Below, piece by piece: positions 7,361 to 16,839 of a DNA stretch of 32,000 nt. The notes under the pieces were generated by a model. The model worked only from the letters and a program-made list of their open reading frames with translations, searched no databases and was not told where the DNA came from. The stretch spans positions 1,800,001 to 1,832,000 of the forward strand of contig LT962688.1 in NCBI GenBank assembly GCA_900234795.1, written 5' to 3'. Source of the DNA: Methylorubrum extorquens (lineage in GTDB: Bacteria; Pseudomonadota; Alphaproteobacteria; Rhizobiales; Beijerinckiaceae). The position numbers and the translations under genes were made by a program. Every line of letters begins with the position of its first letter. The first letter of the stretch is position 1.

Positions 7361-7804
7361 ATGTGGTCACTCTACGCTCTCACGGTTCTCGCCGGTCTCG
7401 CCAACGCGATCCAGCCGGGACAGAACGCGACTCTGTCGAAGTCGCTCGGCCTGCCGGTGACGGCGGCCCTCCTGACCCTGCTGGTCAGCACCGCCGCCCT
7501 GCTCGTGGGCGGCCTCGCCCTGGGCAAACTCGAACTCCCCACCGGCCAACAGCTCGGGCAGGTGCCCTGGTGGGCGTGGCTCGGCGGCTTTTTGAGTATT
7601 CTGCTGATCCTGGCCCAGCTCTACGCCTCCCCCGCCATCGGCGCGGCGACGTTTTTGGGCATCATCGTCACCGTGGGCGTGCTCGCCTCGCTCGTGCTCG
7701 ACCACTTCGGCTGGATCGGATTTCAGGTGCACCCGGCCAGCGTTTGGCGGGTTGCCGGGGCGGTGTTGATGGTGATTGGGGTGGGGCTGGTGGCGGTGTT
7801 TTGA
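7361..7804 (+). CDS. DMT-superfamily small membrane protein (DUF606/YdcZ-like)
   Basis: 147-aa protein made almost entirely of hydrophobic helices (LYALTVLAGLANAIQPGQNATLSKSLG...VLMVIGVGLVAVF). The pattern matches DUF606 as I recall it. The stop at 7802-7804 coincides with the GC drop. Confidence 0.8.
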   Translation: MWSLYALTVLAGLANAIQPGQNATLSKSLGLPVTAALLTLLVSTAALLVGGLALGKLELPTGQQLGQVPWWAWLGGFLSILLILAQLYASPAIGAATFLGIIVTVGVLASLVLDHFGWIGFQVHPASVWRVAGAVLMVIGVGLVAVF

Positions 7805-7972
7805 TGGATAAGCATACGATCAATTGAATTATTCAGAAAATCATGCCCAGTCTGGACTAATCAGCGGGACAACTATTGTTCGAAAATCGTAGATACTGAA
7901 AAATTAATCTATATTCGTAAGAGCGCGGTGTCCCGCCCTAGGTGCGGTATCGGGTGCAAAATGTTTCTGAAA

Positions 7973-8000
7973 TTGCCTTGTCGGAAGGTTTGTTTATGCT
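7973..8000 (+). promoter_or_regulatory. possible sigma70-like promoter for the helicase gene
   Basis: TTGCCT (7973-7978), a 16-nt spacer, then TATGCT (7995-8000), about 35 nt upstream of the first candidate start. This is a motif match by eye only. Confidence 0.25.
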
Positions 8001-8034
8001 AGGTTGCGCCGAACCCTGGGCGTGATATTAGCCG

Positions 8035-9579
8035 TTGGAGCGAGAATTGAGATCGGGGTTGCCAGAAAATCACGGACTGCCAGAAGTAATACTAGACAGT
8101 AATTTAATACATAGAGATGAATTAGGCGAAATTCAGCTAACTGATATTCAGTTCGAAGCTTTGGAAGCAGGTGTTGCACGAGGGAATAACATCCTTGCCG
8201 TAGCGCCGACATCGAGCGGAAAAACTGACGTCGGTTTGTATGCTGCCGGTGCTTGGCTTGTAAGTGGGCTCGACGATGGAGCGAAAGTAGTTTTTCTTAC
8301 ATCCCATCGGGCGTTGGCTCGACAAAAATTCTATGAATTGATAGAAAATTTTGCTCCATTATTGATGCTGGGCTCTGACGAACTTGTTCTTGCGACTGGG
8401 GATGATGTACTTGATTCAAATGGTGATCCGGTACCTGATGCTCTTGCAGTACCTGTTATCGTTGCTACCTATGAAAAGTACCTCAATATGCTTTCAGGTG
8501 CCGGCTTCGAGGCCGGTAGATCTAAGGTTTGCTGCATTTGTGATGAAATTCAGCTAATCGGAGATCAAAACAGAGGGACTTCGGCTGAGATATTGCTTAC
8601 TCTGTTGAAGGGTAGAGTTGGGCAAATTGTCGGTCTGTCAGCCGTGCTTGAAAGCGGTTACGCAGGACTATTGTCAAGCTGGTTGGGTACGAATCTTATA
8701 AGAACTGTAGACCGAGAAATACCATTGAAATATGAGCTAAGAACAGCTCGCGCAACGATGATTACAGACACATCAAGCCAAAAGCAGCCAGAAATACTGA
8801 AGCCAAGATCAATTAATACGATCGACACACTGCGAGATATTCTAACTGATGGGTCAGATAGTGAGCCCATAGCTGTATTTTGCATGACAAAAAAACAAGT
8901 ATTCGATTTGGCTGAAGATTGGTCTGCCGAGGCTGCTAGGCTGGGAGCTCGTGTTGATGAAACATTGCCGCTCTTCAGCGAACTCACTTCCTCAGCCGAA
9001 GAGCTTGTTCGATATCTTCCTCATCGGTTTGCCTACCATACTGCAGATCTGAATGAAGATGAAAGAGTTGCGGTTGAAACAAAGCTGGACGACAATAACT
9101 TAAGAGTAGTTTTTGCTACGACCACCCTTGCATCTGGTCTAAACTACTCATTTAAGACCGTGATAATTCATAGTTGGATGCGGTACAATCAATTAGATAA
9201 GATATGGGCTCCTATCCCTTCTGCAGAATTCCATAATATGGCAGGCCGCGCGGGACGTCTTTCAAGGGTAGATAAAGCGGGAAGAGTAATATATTTCGCT
9301 GGCGACTCCAAAGAGCTTCGAGCGGCGCCGCGATATCTTTCATGGTGGGAATTGGAAGTACCACCACCGCGGATCCAACCAACCTCATTTTCGCAGCTCG
9401 GACTGCAATTGCTGGCCTCTGGCGTTGCGACGTCAGAGGTCACTTTGTTTGAATTTCTGCAGAGTACGTTTAGCGCGCAGAGAGAAATGGAACGCAATGC
9501 CCAGCAGCCTGAACTTTGGGGTGACGCTATCAGGCAGGCCATTTCTGATCTAAAAAAGTGGAGGTTTATTTCTCAATGA
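8035..9579 (+). CDS. SF2 helicase core, Hel308/Ski2-like (RecA1, RecA2 and N-terminal part of a winged-helix domain)
   Basis: All SF2 motifs occur in order: LTDIQFEAL (Q-like), APTSSGKT (8203-8226), VVFLTSHRALARQKF, ATGDD, VIVATYEKY, CDEIQLIGDQNRG (D at 8542), GLSAVL, IAVFCMTKK, AYHTADL, VVFATTTLASGLN and EFHNMAGRAGR (9238-9258). The start is non-ATG. TTG 8035 is the longest option. TTG 8047 has a GGAG Shine-Dalgarno at 8037-8040. Confidence 0.9.
   Translation: MERELRSGLPENHGLPEVILDSNLIHRDELGEIQLTDIQFEALEAGVARGNNILAVAPTSSGKTDVGLYAAGAWLVSGLDDGAKVVFLTSHRALARQKFYELIENFAPLLMLGSDELVLATGDDVLDSNGDPVPDALAVPVIVATYEKYLNMLSGAGFEAGRSKVCCICDEIQLIGDQNRGTSAEILLTLLKGRVGQIVGLSAVLESGYAGLLSSWLGTNLIRTVDREIPLKYELRTARATMITDTSSQKQPEILKPRSINTIDTLRDILTDGSDSEPIAVFCMTKKQVFDLAEDWSAEAARLGARVDETLPLFSELTSSAEELVRYLPHRFAYHTADLNEDERVAVETKLDDNNLRVVFATTTLASGLNYSFKTVIIHSWMRYNQLDKIWAPIPSAEFHNMAGRAGRLSRVDKAGRVIYFAGDSKELRAAPRYLSWWELEVPPPRIQPTSFSQLGLQLLASGVATSEVTLFEFLQSTFSAQREMERNAQQPELWGDAIRQAISDLKKWRFISQ
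9560..9564 (+). promoter_or_regulatory. Shine-Dalgarno (GGAGG) for the downstream nuclease-tail gene
   Basis: GGAGG lies 11 nt upstream of ATG 9576, which overlaps the ORF1 stop as ATGA. Confidence 0.5.
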
Positions 9580-10940
9580 TGGTTACTCCTGGCGGTAGAG
9601 CAGTGGCCCGCTCTGGATTGCTGCCGATAAGTGCCGACGAACTTCTAGGGTATATATCAGATAACTCTGTAAGATTTATCGACCTTATCCAAAATTGCTC
9701 TGAAAATGAAGGTATAGAATGCGAAGACTTTTGCTTTTTAATGATACATGCGGCTTACAGTTGCTCTGAATTTGGCGGTCAAGCCGTTGGCGGTCGCCGC
9801 TTCTTGCCATACCAATTGCTTAAGCCGCCTCTTAGAGGAGCGCAGCAGAGACTAGCCCCGATAATGTTCAAGTCTGGGCAATATGATACAATTAATGCCA
9901 CAATCCTGGCCATGCGATGGATTTCTGGAGATCCCATACGGGATATCGAGCGAGTATTTTCAGTAAGAAGTGGCGTATTGAACAATATGTTCAGTGATGC
10001 AGCAAATATTTTGCGTGGAATATCAGACATATTGTACGCTGTAACTGGTCGTCAGGGCGAATCTATGCTCCCAGCGGCGACGCCGCTTTCGAAAAGGGAG
10101 GAGCTCATATACATTCTGAGGGCAATTCGTCAAGTCTCAGCTAGATTGGATGTGGGTCTTCACGAGGACTCAATCTGGCTGACGACTGTGCATTACCCTT
10201 TATCAAACACGTCGAGAAGTATTCCTCCTATTTTGAGCCGCAAACACATCGTTTCTTTGAGGGGCGCCGGTTTTGTTTCGCCCGACAGTATTTTGGATCC
10301 AGGACGGTTTTCTAGTTTGATGGCCGCATTGGGTTCGGATCCCGCTTCAGCACGTCTACTCGCACAGAGCCTTCAAGATGGAGTTCGTTCTTGGCGCACT
10401 GTCGAGAGACAGCGTTTGATGGATAGTCAGGCTCGTAGACTTCCGGAATGTAAGTCGCTAATATTAAAGTTTTATAGGTCGACCGGTGTAGAATTCGAGA
10501 CGAATTTGGAATTGGCTCTAGAATGTGTTGGGATAAAAATTTTAGAAAAGGACCAGGCTGGAAAGACATCATTCCCTGATTTTGTGACAGAGTCAATTGC
10601 GAGTAGATCAACTGCAATCGAGTGCAAATCGAAGACCGTTGGAGACTCGGTAAATTTCAATGATGCAACTGACGTAATCCGCAAGGCAAATGTTAATGGC
10701 CTAAGTCAATCATTCAAAATCACTGTTTGCCAGCCGTATATAAGCCCAGATGTGCCTCGAAAGCTCACCAACTGCACTGAGCTTTGTGTGGTGAATGCGG
10801 AAGATCTTGCTGAGGCCCTAGTTCGAGTCAAGTTGGGAAAAATTTCTATGGAAACCTTCGCTGATTGGATACAGCGGCCCGGTCAAGCGTTGCGTGAAAT
10901 GTTGCCCAGTGATGGGTCTAGTGTTATTGGAATATCTTGA
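9576..10940 (+). CDS. helicase C-terminal module (winged-helix remainder, ratchet-like helical domain, HhH-like segment) fused to a PD-(D/E)xK nuclease domain
   Basis: VTPGGRAVARSGLLPISADEL resembles the Hel308 'T.lG..vS.lyidP' element. TINATILAMRWISGDPIRDIERVFSVRSGVLNNMFSDAANILRGISDIL is ratchet-like, and IVSLRGAGFVSPDSILDP is HhH-like. The C-terminus reads VEFETNLELALE...FPDF (D at 10578)...AIECK (E at 10620, K at 10626). The ORF track starts at GTG 9558. I prefer ATG 9576 for independent initiation. Confidence 0.85.
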   Translation: MMVTPGGRAVARSGLLPISADELLGYISDNSVRFIDLIQNCSENEGIECEDFCFLMIHAAYSCSEFGGQAVGGRRFLPYQLLKPPLRGAQQRLAPIMFKSGQYDTINATILAMRWISGDPIRDIERVFSVRSGVLNNMFSDAANILRGISDILYAVTGRQGESMLPAATPLSKREELIYILRAIRQVSARLDVGLHEDSIWLTTVHYPLSNTSRSIPPILSRKHIVSLRGAGFVSPDSILDPGRFSSLMAALGSDPASARLLAQSLQDGVRSWRTVERQRLMDSQARRLPECKSLILKFYRSTGVEFETNLELALECVGIKILEKDQAGKTSFPDFVTESIASRSTAIECKSKTVGDSVNFNDATDVIRKANVNGLSQSFKITVCQPYISPDVPRKLTNCTELCVVNAEDLAEALVRVKLGKISMETFADWIQRPGQALREMLPSDGSSVIGIS

Positions 10941-11004
10941 TTATTTTATCTTACTAAACAATTCAATATAAGCGAGTTTGATTATATTTGAAGCTATCTG
11001 ACTT

Positions 11005-11030
11005 CCGCAATATTGTTTATAATGTTGCGG
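11005..11030 (+). terminator. hairpin downstream of the islet operon (possible terminator)
   Basis: CCGCAATATT/AATGTTGCGG forms a 10-bp stem (one G-U pair) with loop GTTTAT, about 65 nt after the stop at 10940. There is no clear U-tract. Confidence 0.3.
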
Positions 11031-11711
11031 TGATGCTATTGCTATGATTCTATACTTCCTACTTTTCAATGCGGCGTTCGCGGGCAAATCAATTGACATT
11101 TTAGGCTTTTGGTCCTACATTCACGCCACTCGCCTCCCGGTCCAACCGGGGGAGCTTTTCCGGTGACCGGCCGGCGAGGCTCGTTGGGAGGTGGGGCGGT
11201 TCCCGCGTCGGTGGCCCGGTCGCCATCGCCTCGGGCGCTGTGCGCGACACAACGCCAACGCGGGATGGGGCCATAGGCCGGTCTCGGGTCGGCGCCCAGG
11301 ACCAACCGGAGCCGGGCCCAATACGAGGTCCGGTGCGGACGAGTCCGCCCATAGCCGTCTGCCGAGGTTCCCTCTCCCCTCGCGGGGAGGCGGGCCGAGG
11401 GTCCCACAGCGCCTAGATCCGGGGTCGATGCCGGTGGAGAGACCGTGACGCCAAAACGGAGGGACGGCTTCCCGTGATAAGGAAGCGGCCCCTCCGCGGG
11501 ACGCCGGGAAACCGGCAAAGTCTCACATACCCATCCGGAGGTTTCGCGGCGTCCCGCGTCCCCCTCGGGGTTTGTGTCCGATGCGTACCCAGCCGGCCGA
11601 TCGGCCAGCCGTCCTCCGGGCCCGGATCTCAGGGCCGCGGGGGGAAACGTGTTTTTGCAAGAATGCGGTTCGACCGGTCGGGGCGACGAGCGCGGTTCCA
11701 GCCCTCCGTCT

Positions 11712-13245: not shown

Positions 13246-15093
13246 ATGGAGCGCCGGCCGGACACGGAACGCCGCCCCGTCCACGGGCCGCCGGCCGTAT
13301 CCAGGGAAAGAGCGCTGCCGGTGTCACGCGAGCGGCCGAACGGGGACAAGCGAGGGGGGCGCCGCGGGGCGTTCGCTCTGGCGCTGCTCCCCGCCCTGCT
13401 CGGGGGCCCCGCGCTGGCGCAGGAGACGCCCGACCCGTCGCAGACCGAGCCCGCCCCGAGCACGGCGTCGAACCCGCTCGCGCGCAGCCCCTCCGAACCG
13501 GCGACCGCGGGCCGCCCACGCCGCTCCGCCTTCGACGCGCCGACGGCTTTGCGCGGCTCCGGCGCCTTCTCCGCCCCCGCCCCGCTCGGCAGCGGCACGC
13601 CCGCGAATCCGGCCCCCGCCTCCGAGGAGAGCGAGGAGCCGAGTGTGGCCCGCCTGCCGCGCTTCCGCAGCGCGACGAGCCTGCCCGGCTCCGCCGCGAC
13701 GCGGGGCACCCCGGCCCGGCCCTCGATCTTGCGCCTGCGCGCGGCACCCCCGCGCCGGCTCGGCACGGCGACCCGCCAGATCACGCAGACGCGCACGCAG
13801 CAGACGATCACGGATCTGCGCCTCACCCCGGTGATCCAGACGCCCGTCTCCGGCGTGCCGCTGCCGGCGCCGATCCTCGGGCTCGGCCTGCCGAACGCCG
13901 CCGGGCTGCTGCTCGGCACGGCTTTGCGCCGGCCGATCCCCGCCGACACCGCCTACGCGCCGCTCGGCATCCGGCTCGGCACCTTCACGCTGCTGCCGGC
14001 CTTCACCCAGAGCGTCGGCTACGATTCGAACCCGGACCAGATCGGCGGCACCCGCTTGCGGCCCTCCCTGGCGCTGCGCAGCGAGGCGGAGCTGGCGCTG
14101 CGCAGCGAATGGTCGGCGAGCGAACTCACCGCCGAGATGCGCGGCAGCTACCTCGAATATCCGCAGAACCCCGAGGCGAGCCGCCCCAACGCGGTGGGCA
14201 CCGCGCGGATGCGCGTCGACGTCGACCGCGACACCCGGATCGATCTGGAGACCCGCTTCCTGCTCGACAGCCAGCGCATCGGCAGCCCGGATCTCGGCGC
14301 GGGCGGGGGGGCGACGACCCGGCCGCTCTTCGCCACCTACGGCGCGACCGCGGGGGTGCAGGAAAACTTCAACCGGCTGCAGCTCTCGCTGCGCGGCTCG
14401 ATCGACCGCTCCGTCTTCGAGGACGCGCAGCTCGGCAACGGCACCACGATCATCCAGAGCGACCGCGACGCCAACCAGTACGGCCTGCGCCTGCGCGCCG
14501 GATACGAGATCTCGCCCGCGATCACGCCCTTCGTCGAGACCTTCCTCGACACCCGGGTCTACGACACGCCGGTGGACCAGTTCGGCCTGCGCCGCGATTC
14601 CGACGGCGTCGCCTTCACCGCAGGCGCGGCGGTGGCGCTCAACAGCACGCTGACGGCGGAAATCTCGGGCGGCCTGCAGCACCGCTCCTACATCGATCGC
14701 ACACTGCAGGACATCAACGCGCCGGTCATCAACGCGGCGCTCGTCTGGTCGGTCTCGCCGCTGACCACGGTGCGGTTCAACCAGCAGACCGGCGTGATCG
14801 AGACCGCGGTGCCGGGCTCCAGCGGCGCCTTCACCGACGCCGCCACGCTCGAAGTGCAGCACGACCTCCTGCGCAACCTCTCGATCACGCTGGGCGGCGC
14901 TTACCTCTCCACCAACTACGACGGCGTGCGCATCCGCGAGCGGGGCTATTCCGCCACCGCCCGGCTCGACTACCGCTTCAACCGCTGGCTCGCTCTCCGC
15001 GGCAGCTACATCTATTCGACGCTGAACAGCACCGTCCCGCTCTCGACCTACGAGGCGCACACGGTGCTGCTCGGGGTGCGGGTGAACCCCTGA
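13246..15093 (+). CDS. outer-membrane beta-barrel protein with a long Pro/Ala/Ser-rich N-terminal region
   Basis: Signal-like segment RGAFALALLPALLGGPALAQE is followed by about 200 aa of low complexity. Alternating beta-strand patterns follow, ending in the typical C-terminal ...YEAHTVLLGVRVNP. The start is uncertain: ATG 13246, 13222 or 13153. The ORF-track start at 12805 lies inside kpsF antisense. Confidence 0.78.
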   Translation: MERRPDTERRPVHGPPAVSRERALPVSRERPNGDKRGGRRGAFALALLPALLGGPALAQETPDPSQTEPAPSTASNPLARSPSEPATAGRPRRSAFDAPTALRGSGAFSAPAPLGSGTPANPAPASEESEEPSVARLPRFRSATSLPGSAATRGTPARPSILRLRAAPPRRLGTATRQITQTRTQQTITDLRLTPVIQTPVSGVPLPAPILGLGLPNAAGLLLGTALRRPIPADTAYAPLGIRLGTFTLLPAFTQSVGYDSNPDQIGGTRLRPSLALRSEAELALRSEWSASELTAEMRGSYLEYPQNPEASRPNAVGTARMRVDVDRDTRIDLETRFLLDSQRIGSPDLGAGGGATTRPLFATYGATAGVQENFNRLQLSLRGSIDRSVFEDAQLGNGTTIIQSDRDANQYGLRLRAGYEISPAITPFVETFLDTRVYDTPVDQFGLRRDSDGVAFTAGAAVALNSTLTAEISGGLQHRSYIDRTLQDINAPVINAALVWSVSPLTTVRFNQQTGVIETAVPGSSGAFTDAATLEVQHDLLRNLSITLGGAYLSTNYDGVRIRERGYSATARLDYRFNRWLALRGSYIYSTLNSTVPLSTYEAHTVLLGVRVNP

Positions 15094-15107
15094 GGGGAGC
15101 GCGCCTT

Positions 15108-15208
15108 AGAGCCGTCTCCGACCTGATGGCATCAGGCCGGCGTCTCTCGGTCTTTGTTTCGACGCGCTTTCTTTCGCCGAACCGGCGTCCACTTCGTCGG
15201 AAAGCGCT
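15108..15208. repeat. 101-nt structured intergenic repeat, copy B
   Basis: Ungapped match (91/101) to 11845-11945. It fills almost the entire gap between the convergent stops at 15093 (+) and 15209 (-). Confidence 0.85.
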
Positions 15209-15773
15209 TTAGCGCGCCATCGAGAGCTGCGCGCCGGATTTCGAGAGCGCGCCCTCGAGTCCGCCGCCGGCCTGCCGCAGGCGCGCCGTGACGGTGCCGC
15301 CCGGCTGGTAGAGGTAGACCTCGCCATCGCGGAAATCCCAGGCCGAGACCTTGGCGAGATCCTTGTTGCCGCAACCCGCGGCCGAGGCCTTGTAGAGATC
15401 GAGCGAGGGCGTGCTCGACAGCGACACCTTGCAGCTTCCCGCGGCATCGGTGGCGTTCCACGAGCCCACCACCGAGGAGCGGCCGGTCGCGACCACCGGC
15501 GGCGGAGCGGGCGGGGGGCGGCGGCTCGATCGCCTGCGAGGGGGCCGCGGCGACGCTCGGGGGCGGCGGCTCGCCCGGCGCGGCGGAGGCGCCCGGCGGG
15601 GGCGCGAGCGGCTCGCTCGTCACCGTGCCGGCGGGCAGAGCGGGCGTGGCGGGTTCAAGCGCCGCCTGGGGGCGCGGACGCTCGCGGGGCCCCTCGAAGC
15701 GGTTGGAGGCGCAGGCGCCGACGCTCGCGGCCAGCGCGAGACAGGCGGCTTTCGACAGGAACCCACGCGTCAT
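15209..15773 (-). pseudogene. Omp19/Inh-family (protease-inhibitor-like) lipoprotein gene, apparently frameshifted
   Basis: The frame from ATG 15773 (GAGGGG Shine-Dalgarno) gives a lipoprotein signal, MTRGFLSKAACLALAASVGAC, plus a Pro-rich linker. The conserved C-terminal domain VVGSWNATDAAGSCKVSL...LAKVSAWDFRDGEVYLYQPGGTVTARL...GAQLSMAR is in a different frame (15496..15209). The length is 565 nt, which is 3n+1. The switch maps near the G6 tract at 15513-15518. Confidence 0.7.
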
Positions 15774-15950
15774 CAAAGACCCCCTCACCCCAAACACGCA
15801 ACGGTCGCGCTTGCCCTCAGGGCCAAATGCGCTTGCGGCAAGGCAGGCTGCACGCCGGGCCGGGGAAAAGCCGTACACGTCCAGGTTTTCGCGGCAGTGT
15901 GGCGGCCCTGCCTCAGTCGAGGAGCACGGCCTGTGGGGTGCCGGAACGCG

Positions 15951-15981
15951 GAGAGCCGCGCCCGGATTGGGCGCGGCTCTC
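15951..15981 (-). terminator. hairpin downstream of sdhB (probable terminator)
   Basis: Perfect 13-bp stem GAGAGCCGCGCCC/GGGCGCGGCTCTC with loop GGATT, 34 nt after the sdhB stop. There is no U-tract. Confidence 0.5.
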
Positions 15982-16014
15982 GGACGTCGTCTCGTAGGTC
16001 CTGCGGCGAAGCGA

Positions 16015-16839
16015 TCAGACTTCGCGTTCGACCATCATCTTCTTGATCTCGGCGATCGCCTTGGCCGGATTGAGGTTCTTCGGGCAGGTGTTGGCGCAGT
16101 TCATGATCGTGTGGCAGCGGTAGAGCCGGAACGGGTCGTGCAGCCCGTCAAGGCGCTCACCGGTGTTCTCGTCGCGGCTGTCGATCAGCCAGCGATAGGC
16201 CTGAAGCAGAGCTGCCGGGCCGAGGAACTTGTCGCCGTTCCACCAGTAGCTCGGGCAGCTCGTGGTGCAGCAGGCGCACAGGATGCACTCGTAGAGGCCG
16301 TCGAGCCGGGCGCGGTCCTCGGGCGTCTGCTTCCACTCCTTCTCGGGCGCGGGCGTCTCGGTCTGGAGCCAGGGCTCGATCGACGCGTGCTGCGCGTAGA
16401 AGTTGGTCAGATCCGGCACGAGGTCCTTCAGGACCGGCATGTGCGGCAGCGGGTAGATCCGCACCGCCCCGTCCTTGTCCTTGCGGGTGAGAAACGGCAG
16501 GGCGTTGTCGGGGGTCTTGCACTCGTCGATGCCCATGGTGCAGGCGAGCGCGTTCTGGCCCTCGATGTTCATGGCGCAGGAGCCGCAGATGCCCTCGCGG
16601 CAGGAGCGGCGGAAGACCAGCGTCGGATCGACCTTGTTCTTGATCCACAGCAGGGCGTCGAGGACCATCGGGCCGCAATCGTCGCGATCGACCCTATAGG
16701 TGTCGATGCGTGGATTCTTCCCGTCATCCGGGTTCCAGCGATAGATCCGGAACGTCTGGAGGTTCTTGGCGCCGTCCGGCGCCGGCCAGGTCCGGCCTTC
16801 GGTGACCTGGGAGTTCTTGGGAAGATTGAACTGGGCCAT
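16015..16839 (-). CDS. sdhB: succinate dehydrogenase iron-sulfur subunit
   Basis: Three Fe-S cluster cysteine motifs are present: [23 protein letters not shown] and [13 protein letters not shown]. It sits in an sdh operon. Confidence 0.97.

Follow-up and report, generated by a model that had tools for sequence, protein, structure and literature searches.

A Hel308-like helicase and PD-(D/E)xK nuclease probably encoded by two translationally coupled genes in Methylorubrum extorquens

Introduction

Translational coupling through an ATGA overlap is classically known from gene pairs of the Escherichia coli trp operon. Programmed -1 frameshifting is represented by dnaX and by the IS3 insertion sequences, whose frameshift sites are conserved and whose products have been demonstrated. 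We analysed a gene junction in Methylorubrum extorquens that carries the letters of both arrangements, at positions 9541-9600 of a DNA stretch of 32,000 nucleotides (nt) (GenBank assembly GCA_900234795.1, contig LT962688.1, positions 1,800,001 to 1,832,000 of the forward strand), referred to here as the window. Two open reading frames (ORFs) meet at this junction: ORF1, which encodes helicase domains, and ORF2, which carries a nuclease. An original prediction, made from the letters alone, proposed a possible -1 frameshift fusion of the two beside translational coupling.

Here we report that 9541-9600 is very probably the boundary of two translationally coupled genes, which jointly encode one Hel308-like helicase with a PD-(D/E)xK nuclease. 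The slippery heptamer at the junction seems to have arisen by chance from the Leu-Lys-Lys codons of an AT-rich gene. The closest described enzymes are the Hel308, Hjm and PolQ helicases, together with the helicase-nuclease systems Hachiman, DdmD and Hna. In the literature, we found no named system that pairs a Hel308-like helicase with a C-terminal PD-(D/E)xK domain.

Results

Layout of the junction

The elements on which the analysis turns are as follows.

ORF1, positions 8047-9579, forward strand: helicase subunit of 510 amino acids (aa) from TTG 8047 (514 aa if from TTG 8035), ending in DLKKWRFISQ and a stop
ORF2, positions 9576-10940, forward strand: 454 aa, beginning MMVTPGGRAVARSGLLP; last winged-helix strand, ratchet domain, helical domain and C-terminal nuclease
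Heptamer A_AAA_AAG, positions 9552-9558, forward strand: in phase with ORF1 (Leu-Lys-Lys codons CTA AAA AAG); judged incidental
GGAGG, positions 9560-9564, forward strand: Shine-Dalgarno-like, for ORF2; within the Trp-Arg codons TGG AGG, 11 nt before ATG 9576 and 14 nt before ATG 9579
ATGA overlap, positions 9576-9579, forward strand: ATG 9576-9578 of ORF2 over TGA 9577-9579 of ORF1; the conserved feature of the junction

The 3' end of ORF1 reads ATT TCT GAT CTA AAA AAG TGG AGG TTT ATT TCT CAA TGA, translated as ISDLKKWRFISQ and a stop, with the codons CTA AAA AAG TGG at 9550-9561. Relative to ORF1, ORF2 is read in the -1 frame, with an overlap of 4 nt. The last stop of that frame is TGA 9546-9548; the frame is open from 9549 onwards, and GTG 9558 is its first start-type codon. 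A conceptual slip at the heptamer, 18 nt before the ORF1 stop, gives a product of 968 aa that reads AISDLKK-VEVYFSMMVTPGGR. The heptamer in phase, the TGA at 9546-9548, the ATGA, the GGAGG at 11 nt and the 968-aa fusion are thus all present as originally described. The starts of both ORFs had to be revised: that of ORF1 most likely moves from 8035 to TTG 8047, and that of ORF2 moves from GTG 9558 to ATG 9576, or to a further in-frame ATG at 9579 that gives 453 aa. On contigs identical to the window, the gene caller reports genes of 510 aa and 454 aa with a 4-nt overlap. Among Logan contigs, 6 carry a gene call for the exact 454-aa ORF2 protein and 19 for the 453-aa form.

Counts of promoter-like and terminator-like elements in 7700-11250 are at the chance level of shuffled sequence and therefore uninformative. 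A terminator-like element, comprising a hairpin with a 13-bp stem and a T-rich tail, lies inside ORF1 at 9413-9442, about 110 nt upstream of the junction.

Position of the frame change

A search with the fused sequence found at least 120 unsplit homologues of about 965-970 aa, each encoded by one ORF and covering 98-99% of the fusion at 34-42% identity. As the family norm is one chain, the window looks frameshifted. Split relatives and the window's own ORF2 cluster (P0121/P0122) were absent among the best 120 matches listed; they were found by an ORF2-only search and by genome and metagenome scans.

To locate the point at which the frames join, the two frames were aligned with 25 full-length homologues, and every possible switch point was scored against a hidden Markov model (HMM) built from the homologues only, with the window excluded. 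The nearest full-length homologues read L(K/R)xWGFI-NSRLxLTPVGRRVAxSGLLP. The zero frame, DLKKWRFISQ and stop, agrees with them through W-x-F-I, and the -1 frame agrees only from MMVTPGGRAVARSGLLP. A switch after 9570-9576 scores 951-953 bits (953.2 after 9576); the heptamer slip reaches 944.1 bits, 9 bits lower, as it swaps the conserved WRFISQ for VEVYFS. From the match of the zero frame and the HMM scores together, the frames join at the ATGA, which follows the heptamer at a distance of 18 nt. A caveat raised at the outset, that the zero-frame KKWRFIS resembles a winged-helix element better than the fused reading does, was well placed: this tail is what truly aligns with the W-G-F-I strand conserved in that domain. 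The proposed check on fused homologues gave a divided answer: most are indeed single ORFs of about 967 aa, but their sequence joins at the ATGA and not at the heptamer.

Conservation across split loci

Fifteen independent split loci were compared, namely the window lineage, L001, L004, L005, L007, L045, L048, L054, L065 and L081-L086. They derive from a GTDB genome scan (L001), a metagenome scan (L004-L065) and the ORF2-only protein search (L081-L086). An NTGA overlap, with ATG or GTG as the start, occupies the same alignment column in 15/15 of them at identities of 32-77%, which is far more than chance would produce. In Rhizobium helianthi (L001, found in the single GTDB genome scan, 60% identity), the helicase gene ends YLKQWNFVA and stop, passes through GC-ATGA-AA and continues as MKLTITTTGKAVARSGLLP, without the heptamer. 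The metagenomic helicase chains end in WRFIA over GTGA (L004), WNFVA over ATGA (L005), WGLAV over ATGA (L007), WGFIRL over GTGA (L045), WGFIL over ATGA (L048), FVEGA over ATGA (L054) and FVEGP over ATGA (L065). The remaining loci, L081-L086, originate from Methylorubrum thiocyanatum, Rhizobium leguminosarum, Agrobacterium leguminum and metagenomes. In all six, a TGA-ended helicase gene overlaps ORF2 by NTGA; it encodes about 510 aa where intact, with shorter calls in L081 and L085. GGAGG recurs in L081 and L084, and the other split loci have weaker G-rich runs formed by TGG GGN or GAG GGN codons. The coupling part of the original prediction is thus strongly supported, as judged from sequence, by an NTGA in every split relative found.

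Homologues of ORF2 also stand alone in databases. The ORF2-only search returned about 35 clusters of 440-464 aa from sources that include Methylorubrum thiocyanatum, Rhizobium leguminosarum, Agrobacterium and Methylobacterium, and in at least 4 NCBI genomes looked up they are labelled as separate hypothetical proteins.

The heptamer has no such distribution. An in-phase XXXYYYZ heptamer within the open -1 zone is absent from 13/14 of the other split loci, including the nearest relatives of differing sequence, L004 (69%) and M. thiocyanatum L081; the sole other case is A_AAA_AAC in L045, at a different column. Two heptamers are therefore observed across the split loci, against about 1.3 expected by chance (about 214 codons at a density of 6 per 968). 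This density comes from ORF1 and ORF2 themselves, which contain six in-phase XXXYYYZ heptamers in 968 codons. Shuffling the codons of ORF1 gave a heptamer among the final 10 codons in 4% of cases. The lack of any slippery site in 13 of the 14 other split homologues is the outcome that had been named in advance as speaking against a -1 frameshift fusion. The accompanying caveat about Leu-Lys-Lys codons applies here in a local form, as the LKK belongs to the residue pattern L-(K/R)-x-W.

Another in-phase heptamer, A_AAA_AAA, occurs at 8889-8895 in the middle of ORF1 (an A7 run in the codons ACA AAA AAA, T-K-K), with no -1 ORF to reach. Such heptamers evidently arise freely in the AT-rich ORF1.

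Frameshifting at the stop codon was considered as a general means of rescuing full-length products and was rejected. The last sense codons vary among split loci (CAA, GCA, GCG, GTA, CTG, CTA, CCA, GGA, GAA, AGA) and offer no re-pairing.

A separate set of loci, L064, L043, L044 and L050, is interrupted elsewhere, at non-conserved places, with ORFs that end 21, 321, 333 and 218 aa after the reference segment. They have the appearance of genuine pseudogenes or of assembly errors, unlike the conserved NTGA split.

Structure across the boundary

An AlphaFold model was computed from ORF1 and ORF2 concatenated as one chain, with 50 homologues as input. It has a predicted local distance difference test score (pLDDT) of 88 and a predicted template modelling score (pTM) of 0.86, and the junction block reaches a pLDDT of 93. 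Around the boundary, the model comprises a helix (491-508), a strand (512-513), a turn (514-515), a second strand (516-517) and a further helix (519-527). The Q|M gene boundary corresponds to residues 514-515, which places the chain break in the turn of the following element.

Winged-helix beta-hairpin, coding positions 9565-9587, forward strand: strand (F)IS from ORF1, turn Q|M, strand MV(T) from ORF2

Foldseek aligned complete Hjm, Hel308 and PolQ-helicase structures with the model over about 780-830 columns (TM 0.77-0.81 on the target, E ~4e-30), and a profile search of the Protein Data Bank (PDB) gave matches of 1e-46 to 1e-55 that run through the junction. The Hel308 fold therefore spans both ORFs; the ratchet domain and the helical domain that follows it lie in ORF2, and a Hel308 ring needs both chains.

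The helicase chain

ORF1 contains the RecA1 and RecA2 domains and the larger part of the winged helix of a Hel308/Ski2-type superfamily 2 (SF2) helicase. Its motifs are listed below.

Walker A / motif I, APTSSGKT, positions 8203-8226, forward strand: G62, K63 and T64 invariant in 51 family members and in 8/8 assembled split loci
Motif II, DEIQ, positions 8542-8553, forward strand: helicase motif
Motif VI, HNMAGRAGR, positions 9232-9258, forward strand: helicase motif

Pfam matches are DEAD (3e-15) and Helicase_C (8e-9). Against NCBIfam models of the Hel308 type, ORF1 reaches 1e-27 to 4e-47, with equivalog scores of 96-161 bits against cut-offs of 887-1216. As these cut-offs are not reached, it is a distant member of the family and not an orthologue. 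With RecA1/RecA2, the invariant GKT, DExQ and R..R, the winged-helix and the ratchet in place, the enzyme belongs among the Hel308/Ski2-like SF2 helicases. The best match in defence libraries is to the HamB models of PADLOC (1e-25), which is partial and covers about 100 residues in the RecA2 region.

Translation of ORF1 most likely starts at TTG 8047 rather than TTG 8035, because a GGAG lies 6 nt upstream, the identical contig L074 has a 510-aa call, and the resulting length fits the N-termini of homologues. The N-terminus M-RSGLPENHGL resembles MKVGLPENHGL of Rhizobium helianthi. There is no ATG start available around 8035-8049.

The nuclease chain

ORF2 has no match in Pfam, NCBIfam or PADLOC, so its nuclease was identified through invariant residues and fold.

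PD-(D/E)xK nuclease domain, positions 10431-10937, forward strand: E in EFETNLE 10491-10511, PD 10575-10580, E-x-K 10620-10628

The invariant residues are E822, D840, P848, D849, E863 and K865. Modelled alone, the last 169 residues have a pLDDT of 91, and their best fold match is the cleavage domain of FokI (4e-4). Further fold matches are Hjc, MspJI, AspBHI, EcoRV, NucS and DdmD, the last being weak (E ~0.2). At the level of the model, the C-terminal domain of ORF2 is confirmed as a PD-(D/E)xK nuclease, and catalysis is predicted. Library matches to ORF1 and fold matches to both ORFs thus bear out the early guess of a helicase with a nuclease tail.

Authenticity and selection

Three independent assemblies, L003 from a metagenome and L074 and L075 from Logan, are collinear with the window, have no indels and share its junction. 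As the A6 junction is identical in four assemblies, including the window, an assembly error is excluded.

The split is also old. Within the split clade, nonsynonymous divergence (dN) is 0.18-0.53 and synonymous sites are saturated; the NG86 method returned no synonymous divergence (dS) for any split pair. Because of this saturation, only dN and ORF integrity can be used. Both ORFs are open in 8/8 fully assembled split loci, which keep GKT, DExQ, the arginines of motif VI (R..R) and the nuclease residues E, D, D and ExK; in L048, the P of the PD motif is replaced by F. This pattern suggests that both halves have been under long-term selection. A sequencing error or a recent frameshift, which had been offered as alternatives, are both excluded by the four assemblies and by a split older than synonymous saturation.

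Evolution of split and fused forms

We built a bootstrapped neighbour-joining tree, which is a distance tree, from 51 family members. The window, L004, L001, L005 and L007 form one split clade in 100/100 replicates, which means that the split predates this clade. All split loci together are monophyletic in 0/100 replicates, and the split L045 is sister to the fused P0004 in 99/100. All split loci fall in a basal group, apart from a large crown of exclusively fused members (100/100). The pattern of the tree implies several transitions between split and fused forms at one site. An insertion of 1 nt before the NTG fuses the pair at constant length, always at this place, which favours a split ancestor with repeated fusions; on this distance tree, such a history seems more plausible than repeated identical fissions.

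It is possible, though we advance it only tentatively, that the two-chain form is ancestral, that its chains part on activation, as HamA does from HamB, and that single chains arose through several 1-nt insertions at the NTGA. We consider this likelier than a co-option of the heptamer, which is taken up below.

Genomic island and homologue neighbourhoods

The two genes occupy a compositional island.

Low-GC island, positions 7805-11100, no strand: about 46% GC in a genome of about 68-72% GC; holds ORF1 and ORF2 alone according to composition profiles

The island of about 3.3 kb sits between a YdcZ-like drug/metabolite transporter (DMT) gene (7361-7804) and high-GC host DNA, and its ends are AT-rich non-coding tails (7805-8046 and 10941-11100). 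The flanking genes are of housekeeping type, encoding short-chain dehydrogenases/reductases (SDRs), an enoyl-CoA hydratase and a SIS-CBS isomerase. The window contains no tRNA gene, no direct repeats were found flanking the island, and ten flanking ORFs scanned against Pfam gave no match of the integrase type. Just past the island, at 11495-11558, the host DNA holds a GC-rich 19-nt inverted repeat, 95% complementary with a 26-nt loop, which may represent a terminator or else a repetitive palindromic element.

The neighbourhoods of homologues include integrases, a PIN-domain toxin gene and other island cargo, with no conserved partner gene. A tblastn search of plasmids returned two distant (28%) Cereibacter helicases only. 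In Rhizobium helianthi (L001), the neighbours are a low-GC ORF of 212 aa (9201-9839, reverse strand) and a 1151-aa gene resembling HsdR of type I restriction systems (13293-16748, forward strand), and the neighbourhood is like a defence island.

Discussion

Proposed function

We propose that the two coupled genes would be translated from one mRNA on which ORF1 ends at TGA 9577-9579. Ribosomes that terminate at this TGA, or that are recruited by the GGAGG, would begin ORF2 at ATG 9576 or ATG 9579. The two chains would then join non-covalently into a Hel308-like ring with its nuclease, in which the winged-helix hairpin would be made of one strand from each chain. That the coupling operates and that the chains associate is our inference. 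The enzyme probably serves in defence against mobile DNA such as phages and plasmids, a role suggested by the low-GC island, by homologue neighbourhoods rich in integrase, restriction and toxin genes, and by the distant similarity to HamB.

Several observations weigh against this interpretation. The spacing of 11 nt between GGAGG and ATG exceeds the optimum, and several split relatives have weak G-rich runs only. The structural model is a concatenated single chain, and two-chain association is beyond its reach. Nonsense mutations in sister strains may reflect relaxed selection on the pair in this host. As A_AAA_AAG is shift-prone in bacteria with a single tRNA-Lys (PMC5009743), a small fraction of fused product could be made. 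Finally, the defence role is drawn from context, and ORF2 itself has no counterpart in the libraries that were searched.

Alternative explanations

According to the original prediction, programmed -1 frameshifting at A_AAA_AAG would make a fused 968-aa helicase-nuclease in a set ratio beside both separate products. We consider this very improbable. In its favour are the phase of the heptamer, a -1 frame without stops from 9549 onwards, a family made up mostly of single ORFs of about 967 aa, and the rarity of a heptamer so close to the end of ORF1 in shuffled codons (P ~0.04). These points are met by the absence of the heptamer from nearly all other split loci, by a number of occurrences that fits chance, and by a slip product that loses the W-x-F-I strand to VEVYF. 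The sequence context is equally poor in stimulators. The 82 nt at 9559-9640 have a folding energy of -23.2 kcal/mol, where shuffled sequences average -23.4 (z = 0.07), in keeping with an early caveat that no stimulatory hairpin was apparent downstream, and a single hairpin is predicted, starting about 32 nt beyond the heptamer. Upstream, there are only weak AGG triplets (9533-9538); the GGAGG lies downstream of the heptamer and is thus unable to serve as an upstream stimulator of the dnaX type. The A_AAA_AAA at 8889 shows that a comparable heptamer goes unused in the same gene. High-GC alphaproteobacterial genomes like that of Methylorubrum usually carry tRNA-Lys(CUU), whose tight pairing with AAG lowers slippage, and this host is expected to carry it too. 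Of the four testable defining features of a dnaX/IS3-type site, the in-phase heptamer is present, and the stimulator, the conservation and a collinear trans-frame product are missing. No bacterial heptamer is reported to be more prone to shifting in E. coli than A_AAA_AAG (PMC5009743), which is ascribed to the sole tRNA-Lys of that species (Atkins et al., PMC5009743). According to the same review, about half of all bacteria possess another tRNA-Lys with tight reading of AAG, and weakly expressed genes commonly contain the heptamer without selection for it (PMC5009743). Any slip at the heptamer of the window would be unselected noise, as nothing suggests selection. A narrower version, in which the heptamer was co-opted in the window's lineage only and yields a small fixed fraction of covalent helicase-nuclease with VEVYFS for WRFISQ beside the two-chain enzyme, is similarly hard to credit; if true, a defence enzyme would gain two assembly states from one mRNA. 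Another possibility is that the A6 run switches the locus between a split (A6) and a fused (A7) form, either as a contingency tract for phase variation or through transcriptional slippage, since A7 would fuse the frames and give the same product as a ribosomal slip. This is exceedingly improbable: the run is A6 in 4/4 assemblies, the tract is not conserved in relatives, the fused product would again be without the conserved strand, and six A are few for polymerase slippage, natural cases having about 9 or more, as in Thermus dnaX (PMC5009743).

Two further explanations concern the integrity of the locus. The split could be a lesion, either a recent 1-nt deletion that created a pseudogene or a homopolymer error of sequencing or assembly, in a gene that is otherwise one ORF. 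Most homologues are single ORFs, an insertion of 1 nt right before the ATG restores an ORF of 968 aa (the typical length of the family), and the region contains A6 and T3 runs. We nevertheless hold this to be scarcely credible, as the same junction recurs without indels in four assemblies, the same NTGA boundary is found in 15 loci with saturated dS, open ORFs and catalytic residues kept, and the window's split clade is monophyletic in 100/100 bootstraps. Alternatively, the two-gene form may be ancient and once functional, with the island now a decaying relic in this host lineage, so that coupling and frameshifting would both be irrelevant here. Relatives at 99.6-99.9% nucleotide identity do carry independent nonsense mutations, and the island has 46% GC against about 70% in the host. 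In L003, nonsense changes affect Q454 of ORF1 and E45 of ORF2, beside 4 nonsynonymous substitutions and 1 synonymous one. ORF1 of L075 stops early and is called at 366 aa, with 9147 C>A as the most likely cause among 7 mismatches; between them, L075 and L003 show variants at positions 9147, 9394 and 9708. Truncated ORF2 products of 358 and 399 aa occur in the same 90% cluster (P0123-P0125), including WP_129545778.1 of Methylorubrum zatmanii. The locus therefore looks as if it is decaying in several strains, or as if some of the changes are low-coverage errors, as could apply to some of the changes (G>T) in the L003 metagenome contig. As an account of the window, decay is unlikely: neither its copy nor the identical L074 has any disruption, an uninterrupted ORF2 of exactly this sequence is on 6 + 19 contigs, and all invariant residues of the family are kept. 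Two translationally coupled genes remain the explanation that we prefer.

Implications

For annotation, loci of this kind are easily mis-called as frameshifted pseudogenes, since the majority of relatives have one ORF, or over-read as recoding sites on account of the textbook heptamer; comparison with relatives shows that the two-gene form is genuine. The junction provides a worked negative example for recoding, in that an in-phase A_AAA_AAG at a gene junction is insufficient evidence. For enzymology, it appears that a Hel308-type ring can be made up of two chains, with the break at the winged-helix hairpin. Repeated switches between one and two chains at the same nucleotide position constitute a natural experiment on tethering the ratchet-nuclease module to the motor. 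Finally, a family that combines a Hel308-like motor with a FokI-like nuclease as island cargo is a candidate defence gene.

Comparison with described systems

Hachiman (PMC12278908, PMC11914072) likewise combines a Ski2/Hel308-like helicase with a PD-(D/E)xK-type nuclease in two adjacent genes on a mobile island. The two differ in that HamB matches to the window are partial (PDB HamB 8vx9, 5e-22 over residues 321-423 only) and in that the window nuclease is the C-terminal domain of the downstream ratchet chain, not a separate upstream DUF1837 HamA. We rejected an identification as Hachiman (HamAB), given that HamB is matched over about 100 residues only, ORF2 has no PADLOC or Pfam match and the island has no other gene. 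DdmD and Hna (PMC13381803) share with the window an SF2 helicase, a C-terminal nuclease and the form of stand-alone island cargo, but the window has a Hel308-like core divided over two chains, and neither PADLOC nor PDB profile searches gave a match to Hna or DdmD.

With Hel308, Hjm and PolQ-helicase (PDB 2p6r, 2va8, 2zj8), the encoded enzyme shares the succession of RecA1, RecA2, winged-helix, ratchet and helical domains, with motifs intact. In contrast to these, its chain is broken at the winged-helix hairpin and a PD-(D/E)xK nuclease of about 140 aa is appended.

As a junction, the locus resembles E. coli dnaX and IS911/IS3 orfAB in having the identical heptamer in the correct phase, a downstream ORF in the -1 frame and a full-length trans-frame product. 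It differs from them in having neither a hairpin or pseudoknot nor an upstream Shine-Dalgarno-like stimulator, in a heptamer that is unconserved and in a trans-frame peptide that departs from the family consensus. Its likeness to coupled pairs of the trp type is closer in kind, with a 4-nt NTGA overlap, a -1 frame, a Shine-Dalgarno-like GGAGG in the end of ORF1 and, as would be expected, a complex formed from equal amounts of both products. What sets it apart from those pairs is that the boundary lies in the winged-helix hairpin turn of a helicase that is single-chain in most relatives. Since the boundary falls inside a structural domain, the pair is a fission/fusion variant of one enzyme and not two classical subunits. 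A claim of recoding is not supported by this comparison; what is modestly new is a split Hel308-type helicase that has repeatedly undergone fusion or fission at the turn of a hairpin.

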